27,793 nt of DNA from an uncultured virus (IMG/VR IMGVR_UViG_3300030116_001948) (lineage: Duplodnaviria > Heunggongvirae > Uroviricota > Caudoviricetes), in IMG/VR virus record IMGVR_UViG_3300030116_001948, positions 62,001 to 89,793 of that record. One strand, 5' to 3'. The notes under the pieces were generated by a model. It was not told the origin of the DNA and ran no database searches. It saw only the letters and a program-made list of their open reading frames with translations. How positions within the stretch are numbered: position 1 is the first letter of the stretch; the number at the start of each line of letters is the position of its first letter. A program made the translations under genes and the position numbers. Shown here piece by piece: positions 85 to 14,970 of the stretch.

Positions 85-127
85 GCTTGGATAATTGAGT
101 TGGGAATACTAACTTAGTTATCCAAGC
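85..127 (+). promoter_or_regulatory. 19-bp RNA hairpin (3 G-U pairs, GAATA loop) upstream of the first gene; possible processing or regulatory stem
   Basis: GCTTGGATAATTGAGTTGG(85-103)-GAATA-CTAACTTAGTTATCCAAGC(109-127) pairs without interruption if G-U is allowed on the + strand. Confidence 0.65.
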
Positions 128-1510: not shown

Positions 1511-1776
1511 TGACTGCTAAAACTATTGTTATCAATTGGCTTGACTCTTTAGAAAACGGTGAAGTATTCTTTACCTGGAACTTTGAGAGTCAAGTACCAC
1601 ATTATGGTAAAATCAAGTATAACAAAATACATACGGCAAGTACATATTCCAGAGCATTTAGAAAGTTGCGTGAAGAAAATATATTTACCGACGAGCTTAT
1701 GGGATTTGCACTAAAAGAAGTTAAATCGGCAACTAATGGGAAAATAAAAGGATGGAAGAAAATAAATACTATCTAG
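1510..1776 (+). CDS. Hypothetical protein, possible winged-helix DNA-binding protein (88 aa)
   Basis: TAATG coupling to the SSB gene. The helix STYSRAFRKLRE is followed by short beta strands; the fold is inferred. Confidence 0.65.
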   Translation: MTAKTIVINWLDSLENGEVFFTWNFESQVPHYGKIKYNKIHTASTYSRAFRKLREENIFTDELMGFALKEVKSATNGKIKGWKKINTI

Positions 1777-3590
1777 AACTAGTAGAAGGTAGTCTATCCA
1801 AACGTAACTCTATTGCTGATGTCGTTACTTATCAAAAGAAAGTTATAGACAATGCGTGGAAAGGAACAGAAATGTATCGTTCTTATTTCACATTTGGTCA
1901 AGACTTTAAAGATCACGTTGAAGAAACAGAGTCCGTAAAAGGATTTAATGGTATTGCATATATCGATTACATTATACTTGACATCGATAAAGGCGATATA
2001 CCTGACGACCATTTTATAGGATATGTTCAACAATGTATATCTGAAATGTTTGATAAGGGCGTAATGGAAGAAGACATAAACTTATGGTTTAGTGGTAGTG
2101 GTTTCCATATTGAGATGAAGAATGTTTTTGGTTTACAACCAAGCAGAGACATACACGAAAAGCTTAAACTAACAATGAATAAGCATTTCGACTTTGCAGA
2201 TAGCATCTATGATAAGACAAGGATCATTCGATGCAAATGGTCGTTAAACACAAAGACAAACCTCCACAAGATATGGATTCCACTACAACTACTATCAGAC
2301 TTAGATATGGATATGATACAAGAAATATCATCGTCTCAGTCAAGCTATATGAGTTATGTCAATAAAACTCAATCAGCTATGAATACTAGTTTCTTTGCTA
2401 CATTATTTACAGAACCTACAGTAGAACCTTATTTACAATCTATGGTAGTTGCATCTCCTACGATTCAGTATACAAACAAGAATACCAACACGGATTCTGA
2501 TGTTACATCCGTAGTATCTTGTATGCAACACGTATTTAACGAAGGTCCTATGAAAGGTTCTAGAAATATGAAACTAATGCGAATGGTTAGTGCATATAAA
2601 AGAGCTGGTGTTCCTATGTTAGTTGCCCTTAATGGTATGTTTACCTGGGCAGATAACACAATGTCTGAAGAAGAAATAAAAAGAACAGTAACAAATGTTT
2701 ACGAAGGTTCATATCAATACGGTTGTGATGACCACATTATGGCAGAATATTGCGATTCAAAATGTATTTATTACAAACGTAAAGATTATACTCTTGATAT
2801 TAAAGGTGTAGATGCGTTAGAAGATGCACTAAGAACCTATGTAACAAAACAACTAGAGCAAAACTCTATCAAGCTGCAAGATATATATGGTTGTAATCCA
2901 TATCAATTTAGTCCTGGTGAGTTAGTAATATTCTCTGGTGATACTGGTCTTGGTAAGACAGCTTTTATACAAGACTTAATTGTAAAAGCAAAACAACAGA
3001 CATTGTTTTTGTCGTTAGAAATGAACGAACAACTTATTTTTAGACGATTTGTACAAATTGCTACAAACAAATCTAAAGAGTGGGTTCTTGAACAATACAA
3101 GACTAATCCAGACTTTAGTATTAAAGATAAGTTAGATCATGTCCAAGTAATGACAATAGCACCAAGGATAGAATCTATCAAGAAAGTAGTAGCAGAATAT
3201 GAACCTAAGGTTCTTGTTGTAGATACTACAGACGAAGTTGAAGTTGATTTTGTTAAAGGTGAAATTGAAAAACAAAATGTAGTTATTGGTGCATTAAAAC
3301 AAATAGCACAGAAAACTAATATAATAATTATAGCAATTCATCACTTAAACAAAACATCGGCAGCTAACAATGTTATTAACTTGCATTCTTTAAAAGGTAG
3401 TAGTAACGTTGTACAAAAAGCAGATAAGGTTGTATTGATTAAAGGCAACAGAAACGATCCAGCAAGAGAGATTACATCAGTAAAATCTCGTGACGAAGGT
3501 CAGTTCAAGATGTTAGCAGCATTCAATGCAACTAATATGACATTTAAACAAATAAACGGAGGAAATACATATGTTGAAGAAGTTGTTTAG
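1752..3590 (+). CDS. Fused AEP primase(-polymerase) / four-Cys domain / SF4 (DnaB-like) helicase
   Basis: AEP motifs are hhhDID (D77/D79), SGSGFH (114-119) and DKTRIIR. The middle domain has C257, C325, C334 and C338. Helicase motifs are Walker A GDTGLGKT (396-403), LSLEM, Walker B VLVVD, IHHLNK, LKGSSNVVQKAD and a KSR finger. Confidence 0.9.
   Translation: MEENKYYLELVEGSLSKRNSIADVVTYQKKVIDNAWKGTEMYRSYFTFGQDFKDHVEETESVKGFNGIAYIDYIILDIDKGDIPDDHFIGYVQQCISEMFDKGVMEEDINLWFSGSGFHIEMKNVFGLQPSRDIHEKLKLTMNKHFDFADSIYDKTRIIRCKWSLNTKTNLHKIWIPLQLLSDLDMDMIQEISSSQSSYMSYVNKTQSAMNTSFFATLFTEPTVEPYLQSMVVASPTIQYTNKNTNTDSDVTSVVSCMQHVFNEGPMKGSRNMKLMRMVSAYKRAGVPMLVALNGMFTWADNTMSEEEIKRTVTNVYEGSYQYGCDDHIMAEYCDSKCIYYKRKDYTLDIKGVDALEDALRTYVTKQLEQNSIKLQDIYGCNPYQFSPGELVIFSGDTGLGKTAFIQDLIVKAKQQTLFLSLEMNEQLIFRRFVQIATNKSKEWVLEQYKTNPDFSIKDKLDHVQVMTIAPRIESIKKVVAEYEPKVLVVDTTDEVEVDFVKGEIEKQNVVIGALKQIAQKTNIIIIAIHHLNKTSAANNVINLHSLKGSSNVVQKADKVVLIKGNRNDPAREITSVKSRDEGQFKMLAAFNATNMTFKQINGGNTYVEEVV
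3545..3564 (+). repeat. 20-nt direct repeat copy 2, inside the helicase 3' end, containing the RBS of ORF 3571
   Basis: Identical to 137-156. Confidence 0.85.
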
Positions 3591-3834
3591 CGCACAATAT
3601 GTAGATAAAAACAATATACAAAAAGCAGAATTACGTTTGCTTAAGTTTATTGTATTGTCCACACGAATGGATAATAATTTCGGTAACCACTTATGGTTCG
3701 ATACCAGATTCGGTCCAATGGAGTTTTCATTTGGTCTAAGATACTGGGACGAGTCACCAGAAGCTATTAAGAAATACGAGGAAGATTTCAACATCGTTAG
3801 TATGCAAGGAAATCTTGGCGGAAGTGACGCATAA
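3571..3834 (+). CDS. Hypothetical protein (87 aa)
   Basis: GGAGG RBS before ATG3571. It overlaps neighbouring genes in operon fashion. Confidence 0.75.
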   Translation: MLKKLFSAQYVDKNNIQKAELRLLKFIVLSTRMDNNFGNHLWFDTRFGPMEFSFGLRYWDESPEAIKKYEEDFNIVSMQGNLGGSDA

Positions 3835-4168
3835 AAATAAAGTACGTGGTAACAATCTCGAACGTGAGATAGTAAACACAGCTAAGGACATGGGCATGTA
3901 TGCAAAACGTGCCTATGCTTCCGACGGTAGATCGTTAGGAAAATCAGAAGTAGTTGATGTGATAGTAGAAGATACTACAATACAAGCAAAACGAAAAAAG
4001 AAAGTTGCTCAATGGTTGTATCCAGACTATCACGGAGACGATGTTGATGCAGTTGTTACACGTATGGATAGAAAAGAAGCTCTTGCTATAATACCATTAA
4101 AGAGATTCTTAAGACTATTACAAATTGAAAAGGAGAATCGTGATGGATTTGAACAAGAAAGAAGCTGA
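3815..4168 (+). CDS. PD-(D/E)xK nuclease, Hjc-like Holliday junction resolvase
   Basis: The pattern RGNNLEREIV...VDVIV...IQAK matches the small Hjc-type motif (G..xE.E, D, Q/E-x-K). The start is uncertain (TTG3815 or GTG3824). Confidence 0.75.
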   Translation: MAEVTHKNKVRGNNLEREIVNTAKDMGMYAKRAYASDGRSLGKSEVVDVIVEDTTIQAKRKKKVAQWLYPDYHGDDVDAVVTRMDRKEALAIIPLKRFLRLLQIEKENRDGFEQERS

Positions 4169-4319
4169 AGCTATACTATCAATAGCTAAGAAAATTATTG
4201 TTGCAATAGAAAAAAATAACAATAAAATTGTAAGATCAACCGAAGATAGGCTTGATCACGATGATATTGATTTGACTGGTGTTAGAGCACCAGAAAAATG
4301 TGAAGAATGTAACGATTAA
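4143..4319 (+). CDS. Hypothetical protein (58 aa) ending in CEECND
   Basis: AAGGAG at 4130-4135 supports ATG4143 rather than the track's TTG4125. Confidence 0.7.
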   Translation: MDLNKKEAEAILSIAKKIIVAIEKNNNKIVRSTEDRLDHDDIDLTGVRAPEKCEECND

Positions 4320-4342
4320 AGTTGTTATTTACCATATAACAA

Positions 4343-4463
4343 AACTGCCCGCTTATGAAAATACATGTTTGGTTGGCTACTAAAACAAGACATAACTTAG
4401 TCGCTATGTCTTCGTATTTATGTATAAATAATCTTAAAGAGATTATAACGTAAGCGGGCGGTT
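4343..4463 (+). ncRNA. Candidate branched structured RNA or cis-regulatory element
   Basis: A 15-bp closing stem (4343-4357/4449-4463, two G-U) encloses AAATAC/GTATTT and three hairpins at 4366-4387, 4388-4411 and 4428-4446. Confidence 0.55.
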
Positions 4464-4479
4464 CGAAAGGAAAGCAAAT

Positions 4480-4611
4480 ATGGACAAAAAAGAAAAAGAA
4501 ATGTTTATAAATGAAACGAAAGAACTAATAAGTTTGACTGAACAAGCAATAAATCTTTTGACCACAAAACATAAAAGGTTAAAAGATTTGTTGCGTATTT
4601 TAAAAAAATAA
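4480..4611 (+). CDS. Small helical hypothetical protein (43 aa, MDKKEKEMFINETKELISLTEQAINLLTTKHKRLKDLLRILKK)
   Basis: Translated by hand because it is not in the ORF track. AAAGGAAAG lies upstream. It is the last + strand gene before the convergence point. Confidence 0.55.
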   Translation: MDKKEKEMFINETKELISLTEQAINLLTTKHKRLKDLLRILKK

Positions 4612-4635
4612 TTCCTATGCCGTATGAAAAAGACG

Positions 4636-7600
4636 TCAAGTCGTTGGATCTTCGTTTATCTCTCTCTGCTCGGCTTGACGTCTGACCTTTGCCATATGCC
4701 ACTTAAAGCTATTATATGGTAATCCAGTCTGATATTCCACAGCGTATTTTGGATTGTTAACAGTCTTATATACATCTCTAGCAAATCTACCACCTGGTAC
4801 ATAAGTCCAAGCAGTATACTTCCAGAATGCTTCATAGTCACCATTAACCATACCATTAATGTGTGGTAATATAAATCTACTTGCTGGTGGTGTTATAATT
4901 TGCAATGGTGCTAATGCTTGTATTGGATACTGATTAAAAAATGCTTTTTTTCTAGTTTCTTCATCGCCAAATAAAAACTCCGCAGTTTCTTTCATCCAAG
5001 ACATTGGTGGTGATAATGCATATTCAAATATAGAATAAGCAAACAATGTACCTAGTGCCATTGTCATCATATCATTAGCTACTTGTCTTTGGAATCGTTT
5101 TGTAACCTCAAAGTTTGGATGACCTTCTGCTGCCATCATATCTTCAAAGATCACCTTTCTTCTACGTATACTATTCCACGCATACGGCTGAAAACGTGTC
5201 ATAATACGTCCAAAAGCTGTATTACTAAAGTTAGGTCTAAATGTAGCGTGATAAATAAACTGAGACGCTTCTACGCCTTTTCTAGCACTATCTACTAAAA
5301 ACTCATCTGTTACTCTTACATTTCCTTCAAGATCAGAATAAATTTCTCTAGCTTTTAAATAATGTGCTAAGAATGCTTTACGTCTCAAATGTTTTTCAGT
5401 AGAAGACATAAAGAAACTACCTTTATCCATTACTGCTTTATTAACGTTATATTTTTTAGCTAACTCACCTACAGTAGTATTAACGTATTTATTAATTTTA
5501 TCGTTTACTTCTTTACTATTACCATATAGTTTTTCAGCTCTAGTATGTGCAGTAACTTTCTTTACTAATTCTTTTAAAAACTTTTTAGCCTGCACAGGTT
5601 CATTTGCTTGTATATATGCCAACTCTTGTAATAGATTACCTTCAAGTAATCCTAATGAATCAATCATTTCATGTATATCTTCTCTATTACGTAGTTCTCT
5701 AAATTCAAACTTACCTGTTTGTTTATTAAATAATTTAAACTTTTGACCAGCAAATACTTCTTTAATTAAATAATTAGTGTCTCCTGATTTAAAGAAATGA
5801 TCAAACCCTGTATCAGTAATAATGTTTTGATAACCACCATAGATATTTGTAATAGCTGCTTTAGGACTAAACAATAATGATAACAATTCAAATCTACCTT
5901 CAAGATCAGAAATATACTGTGCACGATCTACTAATGCTTTATGTCTAGCTTGTACATTGTCTGGTAATGACGGAAATAGTTTCTTCCCTGTAATACCACC
6001 ATATACTTTAGATATTCTATTTTCTAGTTTTAATCCTAGATTACCAACACTTTCATCACTAAACCATTGTCTTGGTGTATTATTAATATTGAGTTTGTCT
6101 ATATTTTCATCTTTAATAAACTCGTTAAGATTCTTAATAGTTTGTGTTTCTAAATATTTAGCAAACTGTTTCTTAACATTTTCATACATTTTTTGTTTTA
6201 AGTTTGCCATTTCTACTATTATTTCTTCTTTACGCTGCTCACTTTTAACAGTTTTTAATTCTTTACGTAATGCATTTAATTTATTACCATTAGTAGACTT
6301 ATACGCTCTAACAATTAATTCACGTTTTTTCATACGTTGTTCACTAGTAGTAGGTATTGATTGCTGCTCTAGATCATATAATAGTTTTTTACTTACTACA
6401 TCTAGCTTACCAACTTTCCATTCTTGGTCAAAGTTTGCTTTTTGCCAATCTTTTAATAGTTGCATTTCTTTAGCTGTAACACCGTGTACTTCTAATACTC
6501 TTGTTGAAGGGAAACCCATATACCCTCTAGTAAAATCAATCATTGTAGCGTGCCATTTTTCAGCGTTTTCACGCATACGTGGATTCTGTTTAGATTGTGT
6601 TAAAAACTTATCTAAATAAATTCTACTATACATAGCACCAATGTTTTGCATTAAACCTCTACTTAAACTATTCATATAGTCTAATGGTACATTACCATCA
6701 CTTCTCCAACCAGGCATAGAACGTTCTAAACGTGAACGTGCGTGTGTTGTAGTACCCATACCAGGATAAGGATTCTTACCTTTTCTAGTGCTAATCTGAT
6801 TTAACATGTCCATAGCTTCTGGATCTATATATGGATTCTCATACTTGTTTTGCTCAAGAACTTTATTCTCAAGTCTTTGGTATTCTAATTCTTTTGCTTC
6901 CTTAAATGTAATTAATCTATCTCTAACATCTTCTGCAAGCTTAGCATCAGTAAGCTGCTTGTAGTTTGTTTTAGCCATAATACGTTCTTTTTCAGTTGGT
7001 AGCCATTCTTCTTGAATAAACTTTCTATTAAGTTTTGTATCCATTTGTCCCATTTGTGGAAAGAATCTATCAGATACACCATCTTCTGCAAACTTACCAA
7101 CTTCACTTGACCATTCACCATACTTACCACTAAATGCTCTAATGTCTCTACGAACTTTGTCAGCCATACTAATAGTTTTCTTACCTTCTTTTATTTTTGT
7201 TCTACCTAATGCATTCCAATCTAACGAACCGTTGTTGTTTACATAGTCAGAATACTTATCAAGAATGTGATCACGTAGATTCAAATGAAACTTAATCCAT
7301 ACCATATCATCGTAATGGAAGTGATTCTTTTGTACATCAAACCCAGTTTGTTTATCTGCTTGTAATCGAACAGTTTTATCAAACCATAACAATCTACGTA
7401 CTTCAATTAATCCGTGTTTGTTTAAAAACAATTGTGCCATACGTTGTTGCCAATACTTTGGATGACCTTCTGGTAATGTAGTATTAGAAAAAAACTCTAA
7501 TGGAAATGTAGTTTGCTGCTCAAATAATTTACCAATGTTTTTATAATTACTCTTAATCATACTATTTAAAGAGTATTCCATAATAGGTTGTATTACTTCA

Positions 7601-10600
7601 GTTCTAATTATATCAGCATACTCTAAAGGTTCTACGTATACACGATCACCTTTTGAGTTAGTATAATAAAATTTTTGGTTGATTTTTTTAATTTCAGATT
7701 CTGCTTTTTCTAAACGTTTAATTAAATCTACCTGCTCTTCAGCAGTTGTTTGACCTTTCTTTGGTCCAAGATTATCTTCACCCAATGTATGTTTTACTGC
7801 TGCGTATTCCCACAATGCATTACCGTGATCTTTATAACCTTTCTGAGATTCGTTTAATACTTTTTTTACTAATCCAATATACTTAGTATTAAAGTCTGAT
7901 AGCTGATTAGCATTTACGTGTAAACGATATATTGTTTCTGCTACAGTCTTTAACGTAGATGTAGGTACAGTAATACCATACTCTTCCATTTGACCAGTCT
8001 TTTCGTTGAATTTTAATACTCTATCAAATTGTAAACGTTGTTCAAACGGTGCTAGTTCTTTATTAAGTCTTTGATAAATACCAAGCACTTGGTCTAATTT
8101 TTTAGGATCACGCAAGTGTGCTCTACTAGGATTTAATGCATTAATTTCATTGGTAATTAACTCAGATAATCTAAAAGGTTCTAGTTCTTGTATATATGGA
8201 TACTTATTGTTTTTCTTTTCAAAACTTTCTCTGCTTTTATACTTTTGTATTTTTTGTGTTTTTTCATTGTATCCATAAATAATAGTATCAGAATCTTTTA
8301 ATATCTTAGCCTCAGTTTTATCTGCAACTTCATTTACTAATTTAGAATTACCCTTAGCCCAGCTATCTACATACACTTTGTATTGCTGTGATATATTCAT
8401 AAACTCTTCTTTTGTATTTTCTTTAGCACGTTTTTTATAGAACTCATCAAAAGTATCTAACGGTATATCTTTAGTAATATCAGCTTTTAGAGTGTTTTCA
8501 GCTTCTTGTAACAACTCTTTATTACGTTTAATTTTTGTTAACACATCTTCTTTACCATACTTATTATTCATCATCTTCATAAAAAATCCAAAACGAGTAC
8601 CATCTATATTTTGTATAAAGTCTGATGTTCTATCAATACGTTTTAAGAAAAATGAATACTCACTTGGTAAATTAAACAATAGCTTTTCATTACCAACTGC
8701 AGTCTGTGAATAAATTAAATTTTTAAACTCATTTAAATTTTCTTTTAGTAGTGGCGTCTGTGATTTCTTTAATGGTTTTAAACTATCTATCAAAGCATCT
8801 AACTTAGCTGGATCTGTAAGAACATCTAAATCGATTAAATCGGGAACCATTTTTTTTGTTTTGAGTACAACTTCTTGACCAGGTTTTGCATCTACTTTAG
8901 ATTGCCTACCTTTTGGTGGTACATTCAAATCGTCCATTATAACTTCTTCAAACTTATCTAACTCTAATTCTTGACGTAATTTATCAATACGTTGTTGTCT
9001 AGATTCTTGTGATAGCTTCAATGTTTCATATCTAGCTTTAGACATATACTCTTTATTTCTAGCACGTATTGCCCAAGTCTGTTCACGATCAGGTAACTGT
9101 CCAGTAAATTCAGCTTGTAAAGAACCTCTAAGTGCGTATAGCCCTTCTAATCTATTTGATTTGTTAAAAAACTCACCAAGTTTTTCTTTTTGTTCTTTCT
9201 CTTTTAATAGTTCATTAATTCTACTATTTACTCTTCTTAAAAACTCAAAACGATTCTCACCTCTAAATCCTACAAAGTCTGATTTAATTAATGGTGTTGC
9301 TATATAAAATACATCAAACAAATCTTCTACTCTATTAAATGCTTCTTCTGGTAATGGTTTACCTTCTTCTTTTCTTCTATTAGATAACTGTTCTAACTGT
9401 TCTCTAAGTATTATTTTAGTGTAAGCTATTTGATCACCGTAAGAACGTCTGTTATGTTTTTTGAAATACTTTTGGTCGTTCGTAAATGATTGGTATAATC
9501 TATTACGCTGCTCAAATGTAAGCTCTACTACTTGTGTAATAAAATCATCTACAGACTCACTAGTCATTTCTAATTCTTTCATTGCATATTGTTTAAAGTC
9601 ATTAGACTTTTTTAATGCAGAAGACAAATCAATAACCTGATTTAGTTTATTCCATAAAAATGTTTCATATTCTACAATGTTATCAAACTCTTTAGGGTTT
9701 AATCCTTTCATAAAATGTTCTGAAAAATCTTTTATACCTACTTTACGATATATTGGATGACTAATAATTTGTTCAGAAATATCTTTTAACAATGCTACGC
9801 TTTGCTCTTTACTAAATCTATTCCAAGGATTTAACTCCAAACGTAATCCAATGTATTGATCTGCAATCAATCCTAAATATGATTTAGCATCTTGTGTTTT
9901 TTCAAGGTAATGTGTAGCAGTTTCTTGAACATCTAAAGGCATATCTGTTTTACGTCTACTACCAAATACAAGTTTATGCATATTTTTAATAGCTTGTCTA
10001 CGTGCTTCCATTTCACCAGTCTCAGCACCTTCATACATCCATTCATATCTAGCACGCATTTTACGTAACGCAACAATAGGTAAATCTATATTAGACAAAT
10101 CTGCAGCGTCAATGTATGTATTCAACATAACATTTCTATCAATAATTAATTCATTAAATGCATTTAAATAATTATCACGCATTTTACCTTTTGTTTTAAC
10201 ATCTGTACGTGGCGTATTGTCTTCGAGCTGTCTATTAATATCTAACTCTAATGCAATCTGATTAACACCATTAGTAATTAAACCAATAGAATCTTGAGAC
10301 ATAGTTGATATTTTACCATTTCTTAACTTAGCTCTTGTATCTAATATGTCTGCTAAATGTTGTTTTTTTCCTTTACTTTCTGATGGTTCTGCATTTGCTA
10401 ATTCTCTACCACGTTCTGGATCTTTCAAGTCTACTGTATCTTTTTTACCATTCTTTCTACGAACTAATTGGTCTTGTATAAAAGATTGTTTATATGCAGT
10501 AGTTAATTCTTTTGGCAATCCCCAGAACATATGTGCAGAGTCAATATCTTTATCAGCACCAGACATCATAAAATCATTATATTCGTTGGTAATTAATGAA

Positions 10601-13600
10601 ATACCTTCACGTGTCTTAGCAAATCCAACAAACTCTCCTATACGAAAACCACCATTACTAATCATAGGTGAACGTATAAATCCTACGTTTTTACGTACAA
10701 AATCATATTCTTCAAAGTCACGCTGTGCTCTTTTTGTTGTAGGATTCTCTTTCATTTCTACCCAAGTATCCCAAAACTTACCAAGTGTCATTGTTTTTTC
10801 GTTTTTCTTACCTTCGTATACAGTAACCTCTATAACATCTCTTGCACCCTCATTCATCATAAATTCGTTGTTTGCTAGACCTTTCTTAGCTTTAGAGTAC
10901 TTTTGCTTACGTCCACTAATTAAAACGTCATATAAGCCCAATTTAGAGCTATATGAGTGCCTAATACGTGGTCTAGTAAGTCTTTTAGCTACATATTGCT
11001 TAACTCTTTCATTAATATATTCTCTAACGCCAGGTCTTAAATATGTACCAGGATCAAAATTTGTATCAATTAAATAATCTTCTACTAGTTGTCTATTGTA
11101 TGTATTAGTTCTATAATCAGTCCATTCTTGCATCGCTTGTTTATCAAAATCAGATAAACGTTCTATTTCTAAAATTTGTTTAATAATACTTTGTGCTGCT
11201 TTACTATCAGGTCTTTCAAATAATATTTGATCTAGTAGCTTAATGCTTATATCGTCTATCCTACCTGATAATTCTTTGTTGCCTAAGTATTCTTTTTCAG
11301 CTAATGCTGTAGCTTTAGGATCACCAGCTGCTGCTTTAGAAACTAATTCTTCCCATTTATTCCAATAATCTCTACCTACTTTGGTATTTGGGTCCATTTC
11401 AAATGTGTTTATATTAGACATAACCTGCTGCAATAGTTTTTGATTACCTATCTTTTCAAAGTTTTCATACACATTTAAATTCAAATAGTTATCTTCTATT
11501 TTAGATTTAAATACATTCAACTTACCAACCAGCTCAAACTCTTTGGTTTTTTCATTCCAACGTACTTTTGTTGGTTCTACTCCAGTCATTTCTTTAATAC
11601 CAGAAACGTAATGTATTTTATCTAAATTGTGTTTTTCTGCAAATGCTTGCCAATAACTATCCATTTTAAAATCAGCTGTTTTATTAATAATCTGTCCACG
11701 AACACCGTACTCTGGTCTAAATAATCCCAACGTTTTAAACACGCCTGTACGAGGATCATATCCATAATTATCTTTTACAATTTCAAATAACTTTTGATGT
11801 GTCATAGTTACACCATCTGTACCTGAATTGTTTTCTTTCAATGCTTTACCCATATTTTTTACGCTACTTGGTAAATCTTCTATAACGATATGGTTAAATG
11901 TATCTCCTTCAAATCGTGAAAATCTACTCATAGATATTTGACTTAAAGGTTCATATTCTGGTATAGCTCCTAACTTGGCAAATCCTATATCATTAAATTT
12001 ATCTTGTAAACGATAAGTACCAGATTCAATACTTTCTAAAACTTTTTTATTGTGTGCCTCAACACGTTGTATTAACTCTGGATTATCTTTAGCAAACTGT
12101 TCATACAAATCATTGTTAGCTTTACTAGAACGTTTACCATACAAAGTAATATAAGTATTCTCAAATATTGGTGTCATATCAATATCTGTATAACGCTTGT
12201 CATTTAAAAATCTTTCTATTACTAAAGGATCTAGAGATAATTTAATATCAGTAAAATTCTTAGGATTGAATACGTCCATATCTACTTGACGTGTTCTTGT
12301 TAAGTTTTTGTATCCAGCAAAGTATTCTGGATTTAATGCTATTTCAATACCAGAATGATGTTTAGTACGTTTCTGGAATTTAGTTACACTTTCATACGGT
12401 TCTGTTTTTACCCACTCACGTATTAAATCTTTAGTAGGAATTTCACCTAATCTAATTAATCCTGTTTCTTGCATACGCCACATTAATGTAGCAATATTAC
12501 TTTTATATCTACCTTTAGTAACTGGTATCTTTAATTCATTAATTAAAAAGTTATTTAATGCTTTAATATCTTTTAACTTTGTGCCTCTTGCCCAAGGATA
12601 TGCTCTGACTTGTATTCTACCAGTCTCACCATTAGCAGCGTAAATAAATGCACCTTCTTTTTCTAGCTGCTTAGCCATATTATTTAACTGTTTATCAGTC
12701 ATATGTTCTGCTAATTGCAATGGTCTAATACGATTACCTTTGCTATCTGTTTTACCTTCAGGTATATATCTAAAAATATCTACAGATAACGGTGCAACAT
12801 TTTTGACTCTTGGTCTATTCTTGTATGAATTAGATGCGTAATCCCAATAACGTTCTAAAATACGTGCAGTTAAATACTCGTAATCATAATGTAATGTATT
12901 ACCCTCTTTGACACTAAAATTGTTATTTTTATTTACACGACTAGAACCATGTGTAGGATTACCAGCTTTACTACCACCAATAGGTTTATCATAAGAATCT
13001 GTTTCAGGTGCCTCTTTTTCTAATGTAGGTTCTAGATTTTTATCTTTTGATAATGCACCTTCTCCTACAATGTAAATTCTAGCAATAGGAAAACGATCTA
13101 TTTCTTTTAAATAATGCGCAGTTTGTATTAACTCTCTTTTTTGTTTATCACTTACAGTAATTCTATATTTACCAGATACTTCTTTAACAAAAGCGTTAAT
13201 ATCATAGTTTACATCATCAATAGTTTTTTTAAACATATTGTGTAGATCTTGCACACTAGCGTCTTTGTTTCTACGCTTTACATCTATAAAAATATTTTTC
13301 AATGATTTTTGTTTCGGTAAATGTTCAGACAACGGATCAACTTCTTGTACTTGATACTCAATAGTTCTACCGTCTTCTAATGTAATAGAATCTAATCTAA
13401 ATTTTTTCTTTTCAATATCTTTAGCAACTTGCTCTGTATCGCCTATTTGGTTTTCTGTACGATTAGCTATAATGCTTTCTTCTATTTCAGCCTTTTGTTT
13501 ATCTAAAGCATCGTACATTTCTCCTAGTATTTTCTCTTTAGCTTTACGATCTGTTTTAGCTTTCTGCTCCATTTCAGAGGTAATAATACCTTTTTCTTTT

Positions 13601-14970
13601 AACTCTTTATATGTTTCTGCATATGCTAATATAATATCGTTGTATTGATTTACAGTATAATCTATCTGCTGTTGTTGTATATTTTTTAAATATCTACTCC
13701 AGTATGCTTGATACTCAGGACTTTCATTTTGATACCAAGGTTGTTCAGTAAGCCAGTTTCTAGCTTTTTTCATATTGTAATCTCTTGGTATTGCATTCAT
13801 AGAATTATAAATATCTCTTGTAGCTCTATTTTCAAATGATGCTCTACTATTTACACTAAAGAATGCAGCCATTAATGTTTCATATATTTGGTCTTCTAAT
13901 GGTAAATCGTTTAACTCAGAAGTAACAGTACCATAAGAAACACCTGCACCACCACGCATAATAAAGTTAATGGTATTATATTGATCTATTCTATTAGGTT
14001 GCGTTCCTAATGCTTTAGCAAATCCACGAACTACTCTTTCTCCAGAACCACGAACTACTGCGTTACTACTACCTAACATTCTACCAATACTTACATACTC
14101 ACCAATAGTACCAAATATACTACCTGCTACGGCACCATGTACACCAGCCATAGCCATTCCTTTAAATCCTTCACCTCTAGTACCATAAGGTTGTGCAGAC
14201 ATAGCCATTAGCAAACTTAAGTGTATAGATTGATTTACAATATTTTCTACTGCTGCTTTATCTATATACTTGCTTTTGAGTATACCTTTGTTCATATACT
14301 CTAAAATTCTTACGTTATTGTTATGTAAACCTTTTGTAGCTTGTTTCTGTATAAAGTTAGCTGCTAATCCAGGTATAGATACTACACCATATAGTTTTTG
14401 TCCAGTAGCAGGATCAATACCTGTTGGTGTAGGTGATGCTAATTTTGTAGCTCTAGCAAACCTATCCATAGCTTTTTGTATTTTTAGATTACTGTTTTGC
14501 CAATCTTGAGATTTGAGTTCTATACGTTCTGCTACTTTTTCTAAACGTTTGTTGCCGCTTTTCTTAGCTTTTTCTTTCAGTCCACGACTTACGACACCAG
14601 CAGCAGCTCTACCACCAGTAATAGTTGATACTACTAAACTTGGTGCTAATCCAATCAAATGTCCTATGTTATTAGCAATACGTTCTGTAGATGTGTCAGG
14701 TGTATCTGCAAAACCAAAAGTTGTAAAACCTTCAATCAATCCAGATACGGTCTGTGCTAAAACTCCGTCACTACGCCCTTGTCTACCTTCCGTAAGGGGT
14801 AAGCCTGCCTCATTGATTTTAGTCTCCATAAAACGTAAACTACGGGTGTCAAATGACGTAGGAGAACGGTCATAGAATGATTTAAGTCCTCTTGCAAACT
14901 GAAATTCATCTATTCTACCGCCTTCAAGTTCTTTTTGAAGTAGCGTTATTCTGTTATCTAGTTTAAACAT
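4636..14970 (-). CDS. Giant 3444-aa virion/ejection protein with a probable two-barrel DNA-dependent RNA polymerase domain
   Basis: Ordered motifs are SGTDGV (D1052), Lys in VFKT and NKTA, FIRSP (R1433) and SGADKDIDS (D1473-D1477). The N-terminus has Gly/Ala hydrophobic helices. The C-terminus (SQFIYHATFRP...RFQPYAWN plus a hydrophobic segment) resembles large podoviral internal virion proteins. It is the last gene of the structural operon. Confidence 0.75.
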   Translation of the reverse strand: MFKLDNRITLLQKELEGGRIDEFQFARGLKSFYDRSPTSFDTRSLRFMETKINEAGLPLTEGRQGRSDGVLAQTVSGLIEGFTTFGFADTPDTSTERIANNIGHLIGLAPSLVVSTITGGRAAAGVVSRGLKEKAKKSGNKRLEKVAERIELKSQDWQNSNLKIQKAMDRFARATKLASPTPTGIDPATGQKLYGVVSIPGLAANFIQKQATKGLHNNNVRILEYMNKGILKSKYIDKAAVENIVNQSIHLSLLMAMSAQPYGTRGEGFKGMAMAGVHGAVAGSIFGTIGEYVSIGRMLGSSNAVVRGSGERVVRGFAKALGTQPNRIDQYNTINFIMRGGAGVSYGTVTSELNDLPLEDQIYETLMAAFFSVNSRASFENRATRDIYNSMNAIPRDYNMKKARNWLTEQPWYQNESPEYQAYWSRYLKNIQQQQIDYTVNQYNDIILAYAETYKELKEKGIITSEMEQKAKTDRKAKEKILGEMYDALDKQKAEIEESIIANRTENQIGDTEQVAKDIEKKKFRLDSITLEDGRTIEYQVQEVDPLSEHLPKQKSLKNIFIDVKRRNKDASVQDLHNMFKKTIDDVNYDINAFVKEVSGKYRITVSDKQKRELIQTAHYLKEIDRFPIARIYIVGEGALSKDKNLEPTLEKEAPETDSYDKPIGGSKAGNPTHGSSRVNKNNNFSVKEGNTLHYDYEYLTARILERYWDYASNSYKNRPRVKNVAPLSVDIFRYIPEGKTDSKGNRIRPLQLAEHMTDKQLNNMAKQLEKEGAFIYAANGETGRIQVRAYPWARGTKLKDIKALNNFLINELKIPVTKGRYKSNIATLMWRMQETGLIRLGEIPTKDLIREWVKTEPYESVTKFQKRTKHHSGIEIALNPEYFAGYKNLTRTRQVDMDVFNPKNFTDIKLSLDPLVIERFLNDKRYTDIDMTPIFENTYITLYGKRSSKANNDLYEQFAKDNPELIQRVEAHNKKVLESIESGTYRLQDKFNDIGFAKLGAIPEYEPLSQISMSRFSRFEGDTFNHIVIEDLPSSVKNMGKALKENNSGTDGVTMTHQKLFEIVKDNYGYDPRTGVFKTLGLFRPEYGVRGQIINKTADFKMDSYWQAFAEKHNLDKIHYVSGIKEMTGVEPTKVRWNEKTKEFELVGKLNVFKSKIEDNYLNLNVYENFEKIGNQKLLQQVMSNINTFEMDPNTKVGRDYWNKWEELVSKAAAGDPKATALAEKEYLGNKELSGRIDDISIKLLDQILFERPDSKAAQSIIKQILEIERLSDFDKQAMQEWTDYRTNTYNRQLVEDYLIDTNFDPGTYLRPGVREYINERVKQYVAKRLTRPRIRHSYSSKLGLYDVLISGRKQKYSKAKKGLANNEFMMNEGARDVIEVTVYEGKKNEKTMTLGKFWDTWVEMKENPTTKRAQRDFEEYDFVRKNVGFIRSPMISNGGFRIGEFVGFAKTREGISLITNEYNDFMMSGADKDIDSAHMFWGLPKELTTAYKQSFIQDQLVRRKNGKKDTVDLKDPERGRELANAEPSESKGKKQHLADILDTRAKLRNGKISTMSQDSIGLITNGVNQIALELDINRQLEDNTPRTDVKTKGKMRDNYLNAFNELIIDRNVMLNTYIDAADLSNIDLPIVALRKMRARYEWMYEGAETGEMEARRQAIKNMHKLVFGSRRKTDMPLDVQETATHYLEKTQDAKSYLGLIADQYIGLRLELNPWNRFSKEQSVALLKDISEQIISHPIYRKVGIKDFSEHFMKGLNPKEFDNIVEYETFLWNKLNQVIDLSSALKKSNDFKQYAMKELEMTSESVDDFITQVVELTFEQRNRLYQSFTNDQKYFKKHNRRSYGDQIAYTKIILREQLEQLSNRRKEEGKPLPEEAFNRVEDLFDVFYIATPLIKSDFVGFRGENRFEFLRRVNSRINELLKEKEQKEKLGEFFNKSNRLEGLYALRGSLQAEFTGQLPDREQTWAIRARNKEYMSKARYETLKLSQESRQQRIDKLRQELELDKFEEVIMDDLNVPPKGRQSKVDAKPGQEVVLKTKKMVPDLIDLDVLTDPAKLDALIDSLKPLKKSQTPLLKENLNEFKNLIYSQTAVGNEKLLFNLPSEYSFFLKRIDRTSDFIQNIDGTRFGFFMKMMNNKYGKEDVLTKIKRNKELLQEAENTLKADITKDIPLDTFDEFYKKRAKENTKEEFMNISQQYKVYVDSWAKGNSKLVNEVADKTEAKILKDSDTIIYGYNEKTQKIQKYKSRESFEKKNNKYPYIQELEPFRLSELITNEINALNPSRAHLRDPKKLDQVLGIYQRLNKELAPFEQRLQFDRVLKFNEKTGQMEEYGITVPTSTLKTVAETIYRLHVNANQLSDFNTKYIGLVKKVLNESQKGYKDHGNALWEYAAVKHTLGEDNLGPKKGQTTAEEQVDLIKRLEKAESEIKKINQKFYYTNSKGDRVYVEPLEYADIIRTEVIQPIMEYSLNSMIKSNYKNIGKLFEQQTTFPLEFFSNTTLPEGHPKYWQQRMAQLFLNKHGLIEVRRLLWFDKTVRLQADKQTGFDVQKNHFHYDDMVWIKFHLNLRDHILDKYSDYVNNNGSLDWNALGRTKIKEGKKTISMADKVRRDIRAFSGKYGEWSSEVGKFAEDGVSDRFFPQMGQMDTKLNRKFIQEEWLPTEKERIMAKTNYKQLTDAKLAEDVRDRLITFKEAKELEYQRLENKVLEQNKYENPYIDPEAMDMLNQISTRKGKNPYPGMGTTTHARSRLERSMPGWRSDGNVPLDYMNSLSRGLMQNIGAMYSRIYLDKFLTQSKQNPRMRENAEKWHATMIDFTRGYMGFPSTRVLEVHGVTAKEMQLLKDWQKANFDQEWKVGKLDVVSKKLLYDLEQQSIPTTSEQRMKKRELIVRAYKSTNGNKLNALRKELKTVKSEQRKEEIIVEMANLKQKMYENVKKQFAKYLETQTIKNLNEFIKDENIDKLNINNTPRQWFSDESVGNLGLKLENRISKVYGGITGKKLFPSLPDNVQARHKALVDRAQYISDLEGRFELLSLLFSPKAAITNIYGGYQNIITDTGFDHFFKSGDTNYLIKEVFAGQKFKLFNKQTGKFEFRELRNREDIHEMIDSLGLLEGNLLQELAYIQANEPVQAKKFLKELVKKVTAHTRAEKLYGNSKEVNDKINKYVNTTVGELAKKYNVNKAVMDKGSFFMSSTEKHLRRKAFLAHYLKAREIYSDLEGNVRVTDEFLVDSARKGVEASQFIYHATFRPNFSNTAFGRIMTRFQPYAWNSIRRRKVIFEDMMAAEGHPNFEVTKRFQRQVANDMMTMALGTLFAYSIFEYALSPPMSWMKETAEFLFGDEETRKKAFFNQYPIQALAPLQIITPPASRFILPHINGMVNGDYEAFWKYTAWTYVPGGRFARDVYKTVNNPKYAVEYQTGLPYNSFKWHMAKVRRQAEQREINEDPTT

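Follow-up and report, generated by a model that had tools for sequence, protein, structure and literature searches.

In the early mRNA of phage T7, the intercistronic RNase III sites and the 3'-stabilising stem-loops are single irregular hairpins without invariant loops. The put sites of phage HK022 and the nut sites of phage lambda are located just 3' of promoters, consist of two simple stem-loops, and act as antitermination RNA. The pRNA of phage phi29 (Rfam Phage_pRNA) has a length of about 120 nt, paired 5' and 3' ends, and a three-way junction; two of its hairpin loops are complementary to each other, and its structure is conserved with variable stem sequences. Phage genomes also contain many conserved RNA structures that have no known role, and 10,006 candidate structured RNA motifs were predicted in IMG/VR viruses by Fremin, Bhatt and Kyrpides (2023; PMC10690425).

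The RNA element described here shares features with each of these. As in the case of the T7 sites, it is found in the spacer of a replication operon of a podophage-like virus, from a stop codon to the next ribosome-binding site (RBS), or at the end of the operon, and it could plausibly serve as a protective 3' end. Unlike the single hairpins of T7, it is a three-way junction that is clamped by an outer helix (P1) and carries invariant loop motifs. The features of pRNA listed above, including the size and the two mutually complementary hairpin loops, are all seen in the element; however, it has no Rfam match, and the phage possesses a classical packaging apparatus, with an ordinary large terminase (TerL; phrog_38, E = 3.3e-79) and a portal protein, rather than one of the phi29 type. 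With put and nut it has in common that a structured RNA is encoded in cis in an early phage operon, with conserved loops and sometimes with two copies per genome, the action of a protein on the loops being that of put and nut. Unlike these sites, the element is far larger and has a distal position in the operon. Like the candidates of PMC10690425, it is a covarying intergenic RNA motif of uncultured phages from IMG/VR without an assigned function. Its comparative support is unusually strong, with 23 of 34 pairs compensated, and this support and its modular architecture exceed those of the usual structured RNA motif of phages.

Genetic context of the element

The window, i.e. the whole stretch of 27,793 nucleotides analysed here, forms the terminal 27.8 kb of a virus record of 89.8 kb in IMG/VR (G000:62001-89793). 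Positions without the prefix G000 or a locus number are those of the window. The features of the region are collected in Table 1. The homologues of the small protein encoded directly upstream of the element are ten unnamed hypothetical proteins. For the giant 3444-aa ORF on the opposite strand, neither a PHROG family (E up to 1e-3) nor a Pfam family above the cut-off was found; its counterpart in the other half of the record has 3182 aa. None of the scanned phage genes was recognised as coding for a protein that binds or processes RNA.

Table 1. Features of the element and its surroundings (window coordinates)
Feature	Position	Strand	Remarks
Primase/DnaB-like helicase	1752-3590	+	Replication block
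RusA-like resolvase	3815-4168	+	Replication block
Small ORF, 64 aa from TTG (relatives called 58 aa), C-terminus ..CEECND (stop)	4125-4319	+	Final ORF of the replication block before the element
5' flanking hairpin UUGUUAU/AUAACAA	4322-4342	+	In the closest relatives only; stem shifted, still paired (by eye) in L003 and L005
RNA element	4343-4463 (121 nt)	+	Between replication block and 3444-aa ORF
P1 5' arm, outer clamp helix, 15 bp	4343-4357	+	11 of 12 modelled P1 pairs change on both sides
P2 5' arm AUACAUG (family motif CAAAUAC)	4361-4367	+	6 of 8 P2 pairs change on both sides
P3 hairpin UUUGGU-UGGCU-ACUAAA, motif UUGGUUGGCUAC	4368-4384	+	5 of 5 pairs never vary (0 of 5 compensated)
P4 hairpin AAGACAUA/UAUGUCUU, conserved UUAGUC-containing loop	4385-4415	+	6 of 9 pairs change on both sides
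J4/2 joining strand (C)GUAUU(U)	4413-4418	+	Conserved; alternative pairing with 4379-4386 possible
P2 3' arm UAUGUAU	4419-4425	+	Fold and covariation
P5 hairpin, optional module	4428-4446	+	Absent or different in many homologues
P1 3' arm	4449-4463	+	Fold and covariation
RBS-like AAAGGAAAG and 43-aa ORF (4480-4611, ATG at 4480)	4467-4611	+	Inconstant neighbour of the element
3444-aa ORF	4636-14970	-	Converges with the + strand replication block

In appearance, the 89.8 kb record is a head-to-tail join of two related phage genomes, each about 44.8 kb long. The order of the genes and the sizes of the ORFs recur in it (giant ORFs of 3182 and 3444 aa, TerL, portal, and tail fibre), and G000:1-177 is nearly repeated at G000:44770-44894. 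Because of this appearance, the stated size of the record and its 100% completeness should be taken with caution. In the early block of the first genome half, a gene for a JAB-domain protein (Prok-JAB, E = 3.6e-8) adjoins one for a ThiF/E1-like protein (E = 2.4e-23) at G000:16275-17815 (L099, + strand); no counterpart of this pair was seen in the window's half of the record.

Fold of the element

A branched structured RNA had been proposed at this place in a first-pass annotation, and all the helices named there occur in the sequence: the outer stem 4343-4357/4449-4463 pairs over 15 bp with two wobbles (U4346.G4460 and U4356.G4450), and the hairpins at 4366-4387, 4388-4411, and 4428-4446 as well as the flanking one at 4322-4342 were found. 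The assignment of the inner closing helix had to be changed. It had been placed at AAATAC (4359-64)/GTATTT (4414-19), whereas the minimum-energy fold and the covariation of the family give P2 as listed in Table 1; GUAUUU at 4414-19 is a conserved joining strand and no part of P2.

The folding is far better than that of shuffled sequences. The free energy of the 149-nt stretch as + strand RNA is -46.0 kcal/mol, as compared with a shuffle mean of -24.3 (z = -6.36; none of 200 shuffles was as good), and that of the 121-nt core is -41.6 kcal/mol (z = -7.17). The - strand RNA of the core folds more weakly than the + strand (-34.0 kcal/mol, z = -5.3). With DNA parameters, the values of the core are -23.3 kcal/mol (z = -6.0) for the + strand and -19.2 kcal/mol (z = -5.0) for the - strand.

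The element consists of the G+C-rich clamp P1, a long helix, and of the parts enclosed by it, namely a three-way junction of P2, P3, and P4 and the optional hairpin P5. About 30 unpaired nucleotides in its core are near-invariant. The P3 motif UUGGUUGGCUAC is invariant in the version of the element represented by the window (variant A) and is partly common to a second version (variant B, described below), and the P4 loop is UUAGUC in 18 of 19 alignment rows. The 3' half of P5, GAGAUUA, is conserved even in homologues that have no P5 hairpin. It should be mentioned that the P3 loop (GGCUA) and the P4 loop (UAGUC) are complementary and, as judged by eye, might form a loop-loop pairing; this complementarity is invariant. 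A 32-aa ORF inside the element (4355-4453) was rejected: conservation does not extend to its ATG, and neither the indels nor the substitutions, which occur by pairs, are those of a coding sequence.

Relatives of the element and covariation

The neighbouring RusA-like protein was used as a handle for relatives, and 78 related IMG/VR loci were fetched. The DNA 3' of the RusA-like gene in these relatives has a conserved core within a variable and visibly compensating outer stem. The family core is CAAAUAC..UUGGUUGGCUACUAAAACAA-[hairpin, loop UUAGUC]-UUCGUAUUU..GUAUUUG. A covariance model, which was built from seven homologues with the structure drawn by the authors, matches the + strand of the window and 21 of the 78 loci, in the same place. 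A scan of a metagenome collection for the exact 18-mer core gave 36 loci, 21 of which hold the full element according to the covariance model, the other 15 being unrelated chance matches.

Covariation was counted in a model-fitted alignment of 29 matches with 19 distinct sequences. Standard pairs occupied 97.0% of the cells in the 19 distinct sequences, as compared with 80.8 ± 0.9 after shuffling. Both sides had changed in 23 of the 34 pairs (11.9 ± 1.7 in shuffles) and in 103 cells (28.3 ± 5.2 in shuffles); the observed values were reached by none of 500 shuffles, and are to be read with the fact that an alignment fitted to the model structure favours that structure. When the partners were slid by 1-3 columns as a control, 32-49% of the cells were paired and at most eight pairs were compensated. 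The compensated pairs are distributed over P1, P2, and P4 (Table 1), and the invariance of P3 is partly by construction, since 7 of the 19 sequences were retrieved via the exact 18-mer. The counts do not include L006, L007, L008, L056, and L073, five distinct sequences of variant A that carry an additional hairpin on the 5' side and to which the covariance model gave a wrong P1 (E = 2e-5 to 0.018), nor alignments made with MAFFT only, which misplaced the outer stems.

RNAalifold proposed a long hairpin that extends P4. This pairing is possible in most sequences; however, none of its nine extra pairs is compensated, and for this reason the three-way junction is preferred. The helices of the element are kept by matching mutations in related phages, which means that the element is a real RNA element. 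A conserved + strand RNA structure, belonging to a family outside Rfam 15, is thus very probably present here.

The distribution of wobble pairs indicates the strand. In a 12-sequence alignment, 32 cells were G.U as compared with 6 that were A.C or C.A, and the series C-G/U-G/U-A was seen within single pairs. This means that the folding molecule is the + strand, most simply the RNA of the operon, and it agrees with the selection at the RNA level that had been read from the G-U positions of the outer stem. The branched structured RNA read from the + strand is accordingly supported. In four RNA-library runs from two studies, contigs of low depth, which may include DNA, cover parts of 3300-4468. 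One of them (X16 record 3; 4234-4468) begins in the upstream ORF and takes in the element completely, with the same low depth and possible DNA carry-over. The region 4469-4838 was covered in none of the four runs. Contigs end at 4350 and 4468; as contig ends cannot show transcript ends, no conclusion is drawn from these positions.

Variant B and further copies

Among the 57 loci without variant A, 51 have variant B and three have further diverged versions; one (L040) has no element and two are cut short. Variant B is a differently built element that occupies the same slot after the same small ORFs. It shares with variant A the motif GCAAAUAC..UUGGUUGGC, in which GCAAAUAC precedes a hairpin with a varying stem and the loop UUGGUUGGC(A/G). 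Two other hairpins have a loop of the AAGGA type, with compensating stem changes as judged by eye, and a UAUCCAAU or UGAAAAU loop, respectively. The clamp helix, which has at least 6 bp in all 41 variant B sequences folded, also covaries by eye (for example, CCCCCC/GGGGGG, GGCCUAC/GUAGGCC, or GCCCUC/GAGGGC). No Rfam match was obtained for the variant B loci.

Between the CxxC-ending small ORF and the element, the variant B loci possess another conserved ORF, which encodes about 50 aa (..ALLNFKKAPW/F..; e.g. L036:3034-3189). This ORF has no Pfam family and is missing from the variant A loci, including the window.

A variant-B-like element is found in the first half of the window's record (G000:22540-22680). 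A further P1-clamped copy is located outside the window, at G000:57140-57235 on the + strand. It has the clamp UUUUAUAGCCAAGU/ACUUGGCUAUAAAA, GCAAAU..GUAUAC, and GGUUGGC in a hairpin loop; an RBS follows 12 nt downstream, and a strong hairpin lies upstream at about G000:57113-57138. Clear conservation of this copy was not seen in five other records.

Known families and distribution

No Rfam 15 family reached its gathering score anywhere in the window, and ARAGORN found no tRNA or tmRNA gene in the window or in 11 related loci. The view expressed earlier, that the element is neither a tRNA nor a known riboswitch or ribozyme, therefore holds. When the Rfam 15 search of 4200-4720 was relaxed to E up to 10, bglG-cis-reg (16.1 bits; cut-off 80) and PK-repBA (13.9 bits; cut-off 45) scored highest over the element, both at the level of noise. 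The setting is not of the riboswitch type: the downstream ORFs are unrelated, the RBS is outside P1, and 15 of 17 variant A loci have no terminator-type U-rich tail. Nor is the element a MITE-like repeat, as its P1 arms covary, its interior loops are conserved, and BLAST finds it as a single copy in the 89.8 kb record.

The sequence ACUAAAAC..UUAGUCC resembles the anti-repeat and nexus of a Cas9 tracrRNA. A tracrRNA or CRISPR identity is not supported, since the 18-mer is present as a single copy in all 36 metagenome loci, which means that there are no arrays, and no Rfam tracrRNA or CRISPR-DR match was found. Neither strand of the 89.8 kb record contains GCCAACC, which is complementary to the loop motif; a trans target within the phage itself was rejected on this ground.

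The members of the family that were found are about 100-135 nt long, and all of them come from one clade of marine tailed phages, which are uncultured and have genomes of about 45 kb. The variant A pattern is present in 18 IMG/VR contigs, all of the same clade, and the 19-base shared motif in 35. A blastn search of an isolated-phage collection with 4100-4800 gave no match at the DNA level, and for the primase-helicase and TerL the relatives were distant only (at most 26% identity). Among 185,579 prokaryote genomes (596 Gb), the 19-base motif AAGCAAATAC..TTGGTTGGC had 20 matches, in unrelated contexts and many phyla. This is about the number given by chance (estimated by the authors at about 26), and a host counterpart was rejected. 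A literature search for GGUUGGC gave nothing relevant among the matches listed. The motif and two contig names are absent from six of the nine supplementary files of PMC10690425. The family is absent from Rfam 15; it may be one of the 10,006 motifs of that study.

Position relative to the neighbouring genes

The distance from the end of the upstream ORF to P1 is 1-24 nt (median 6) in all 17 distinct variant A loci and -3 to 44 nt (median 2) in 28 of 35 variant B loci. On the other side, 10 of 17 variant A loci have an RBS and a start codon no more than 45 nt behind P1; for variant B the figure is 26 of 35, with one case that is apparently spurious. The ORFs found there are unrelated to each other; they include the 43-aa ORF of the window, a Cpn10/GroES-like protein (E = 1.2e-12), and several others. 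The other 7 variant A loci have no ORF behind the element, where the converging gene just ends; loops and compensated stems are nevertheless kept in them. As the element is intact without a downstream ORF, it is no leader of the 43-aa ORF. The RBS-like sequence that had been pointed out immediately 3' of the structure is indeed present; the link of the element with the 43-aa ORF, however, is incidental.

A U-rich tail (at least 6 T in 10 nt) follows P1 in two of 17 variant A loci (L015 and L045) and in none of the 35 variant B loci; in the window there is no T within 10 nt after P1. A terminator scan within the element gave a single terminator-like site, which is on the - strand at P4. The element is, in general, not an intrinsic (Rho-independent) terminator: its G+C-rich stem is not followed immediately by a U tract.

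Proposed role and alternatives

The reading that we tentatively prefer, with a rough probability of 0.45, is that the element is an autonomously folding RNA domain, located distally in the replication operon, which would provide a protected 3' end or be trimmed to a stable RNA, and whose invariant loops would bind a specific partner. In this reading the element is produced by + strand transcription within the operon of the replication genes (primase-helicase, RusA-like resolvase, and small ORFs). It folds independently, with P1 clamping the P2/P3/P4 junction and, where present, P5. Thereafter it may stay as the nuclease-resistant end of the replication message, either 3'-terminal or intercistronic; alternatively, trimming may release it as a stable RNA about 120 nt in length. 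In either case the loops UUGGUUGGCUAC and UUAGUC might hold a specific partner, either a protein or an RNA.

Several observations stand against this reading. A plain hairpin is enough for the protection of a 3' end, so that the invariant loops are explained only via an assumed partner. Among the scanned phage genes none for an RNA-binding or RNA-processing protein was recognised, the record has no complement of the loop motif, and the relative L040 has no element at this place. The strong covariation, the fixed place at the operon end, and the swapping of sub-domains between phage lineages with a constant GGUUGGC loop point to a specific molecular partner. They make the element a clean target for work on the organisation, protection, or processing of early phage messages. 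The RNA can also serve to mark this clade of marine phages, which is abundant and uncultured.

The RNA might instead act in trans, as a phage noncoding RNA that is released from the operon transcript and captures a factor or an RNA of the host in the manner of a decoy or sponge. This is considered unlikely, although several features agree with it: invariant loop motifs are mounted on variable, compensated scaffolds, sub-domains are swapped between the variants with the GGUUGGC hairpin retained, and a further P1-clamped GGUUGGC copy exists in the same genome (G000:57140-57235). As the phage genome lacks a target, any RNA target would be that of the host. However, the element has no evident promoter of its own, the count of promoter-like sequences being that of shuffles, and no evident terminator, given the rarity of the U-rich tail described above. 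Furthermore, no target can be named, and the additional copy is not clearly conserved in the other five records. It should be noted that a trans-acting RNA overlaps with the stable domain proposed above and differs from it just in the site at which the RNA acts.

Still less probable is a cis-regulator of the next gene, in the form of a riboswitch, a protein operator, or a device for translational coupling or "shunting". In the coupling form, a ribosome that terminates 1-6 nt before P1 would melt the clamp and free, or reach, the RBS after P1. The geometry is suggestive of this: 9 of 17 variant A loci, and 24 of the 28 variant B loci with an upstream ORF, have the stop codon within 6 nt of the base of P1, and the RBS that follows is often directly against P1. 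In addition, a second, mutually exclusive pairing of UACUAAAAC with GUAUUUGGUA is possible in most sequences. This alternative pairing, however, has no compensated pair out of nine. The RBS is outside P1, the downstream ORFs are unrelated to each other, no riboswitch of Rfam is matched, and the element is conserved in the seven variant A loci in which there is no downstream ORF to be regulated. A bacterial counterpart of viral ribosome shunting, in which a terminating ribosome is passed over the insert of about 120 nt to the RBS while the loops hold the ribosome, seems very improbable; the copies at operon ends would then have to be relics or have a second role.

Little weight can be given to a function at the level of single-stranded DNA, where the displaced + strand would fold as a priming or initiation signal for the adjoining primase-helicase. 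As in the ssi and sso signals of plasmids, a strand-specific fold adjoins replication genes, the element being directly 3' of them, and the fold of the + strand is significant with DNA parameters. The wobble asymmetry is also compatible with DNA, because G.T is the best-tolerated DNA mismatch. On the other hand, the stepwise C-G/U-G/U-A series and the content of 8% wobble pairs are typical of RNA helices, the element lies in a transcribed spacer of the operon, with a stop codon on one side and an RBS on the other, and an RNA-library contig spans it; neither adjoining repeats nor an AT-rich unwinding region were noted.

Least probable of all is a new ribozyme, small and self-cleaving, that would sever the transcript of the operon between its cistrons, for although the compact multi-helix junction with its near-invariant unpaired nucleotides, the possible GGCUA/UAGUC pairing (by eye), and the intercistronic position in a phage would suit it, no ribozyme family of Rfam 15 is matched, half of the conserved core is replaced in variant B, which is unusual for one catalytic fold, and there is no evidence of a cleavage site.

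Hairpins in the vicinity and elsewhere in the window

A 10-bp inverted repeat, AGACGUCAAG/CUUGACGUCU (4631-4640/4674-4683), within the window segment 4620-4686, overlaps the final codons of the 3444-aa ORF. On the - strand it is followed by a run of five U, and it looks like the terminator of this ORF. The inverted-repeat sequence of 4620-4686 is directly 3' of the element in L011 and L015. A perfect 19-bp hairpin at 85-127 (+ strand; -28.3 kcal/mol, z = -8.4) occupies the spacer before the ORF at 161-742. In two further loci, L060 (about 3330-3390) and L062 (about 3300-3350), a hairpin with runs of A and U at its flanks (AAAAAAAGAUAGCGAGG..CCUUGCUAUUUUUUUUU) is found within about 20 nt after the element, and it looks like a bidirectional terminator.
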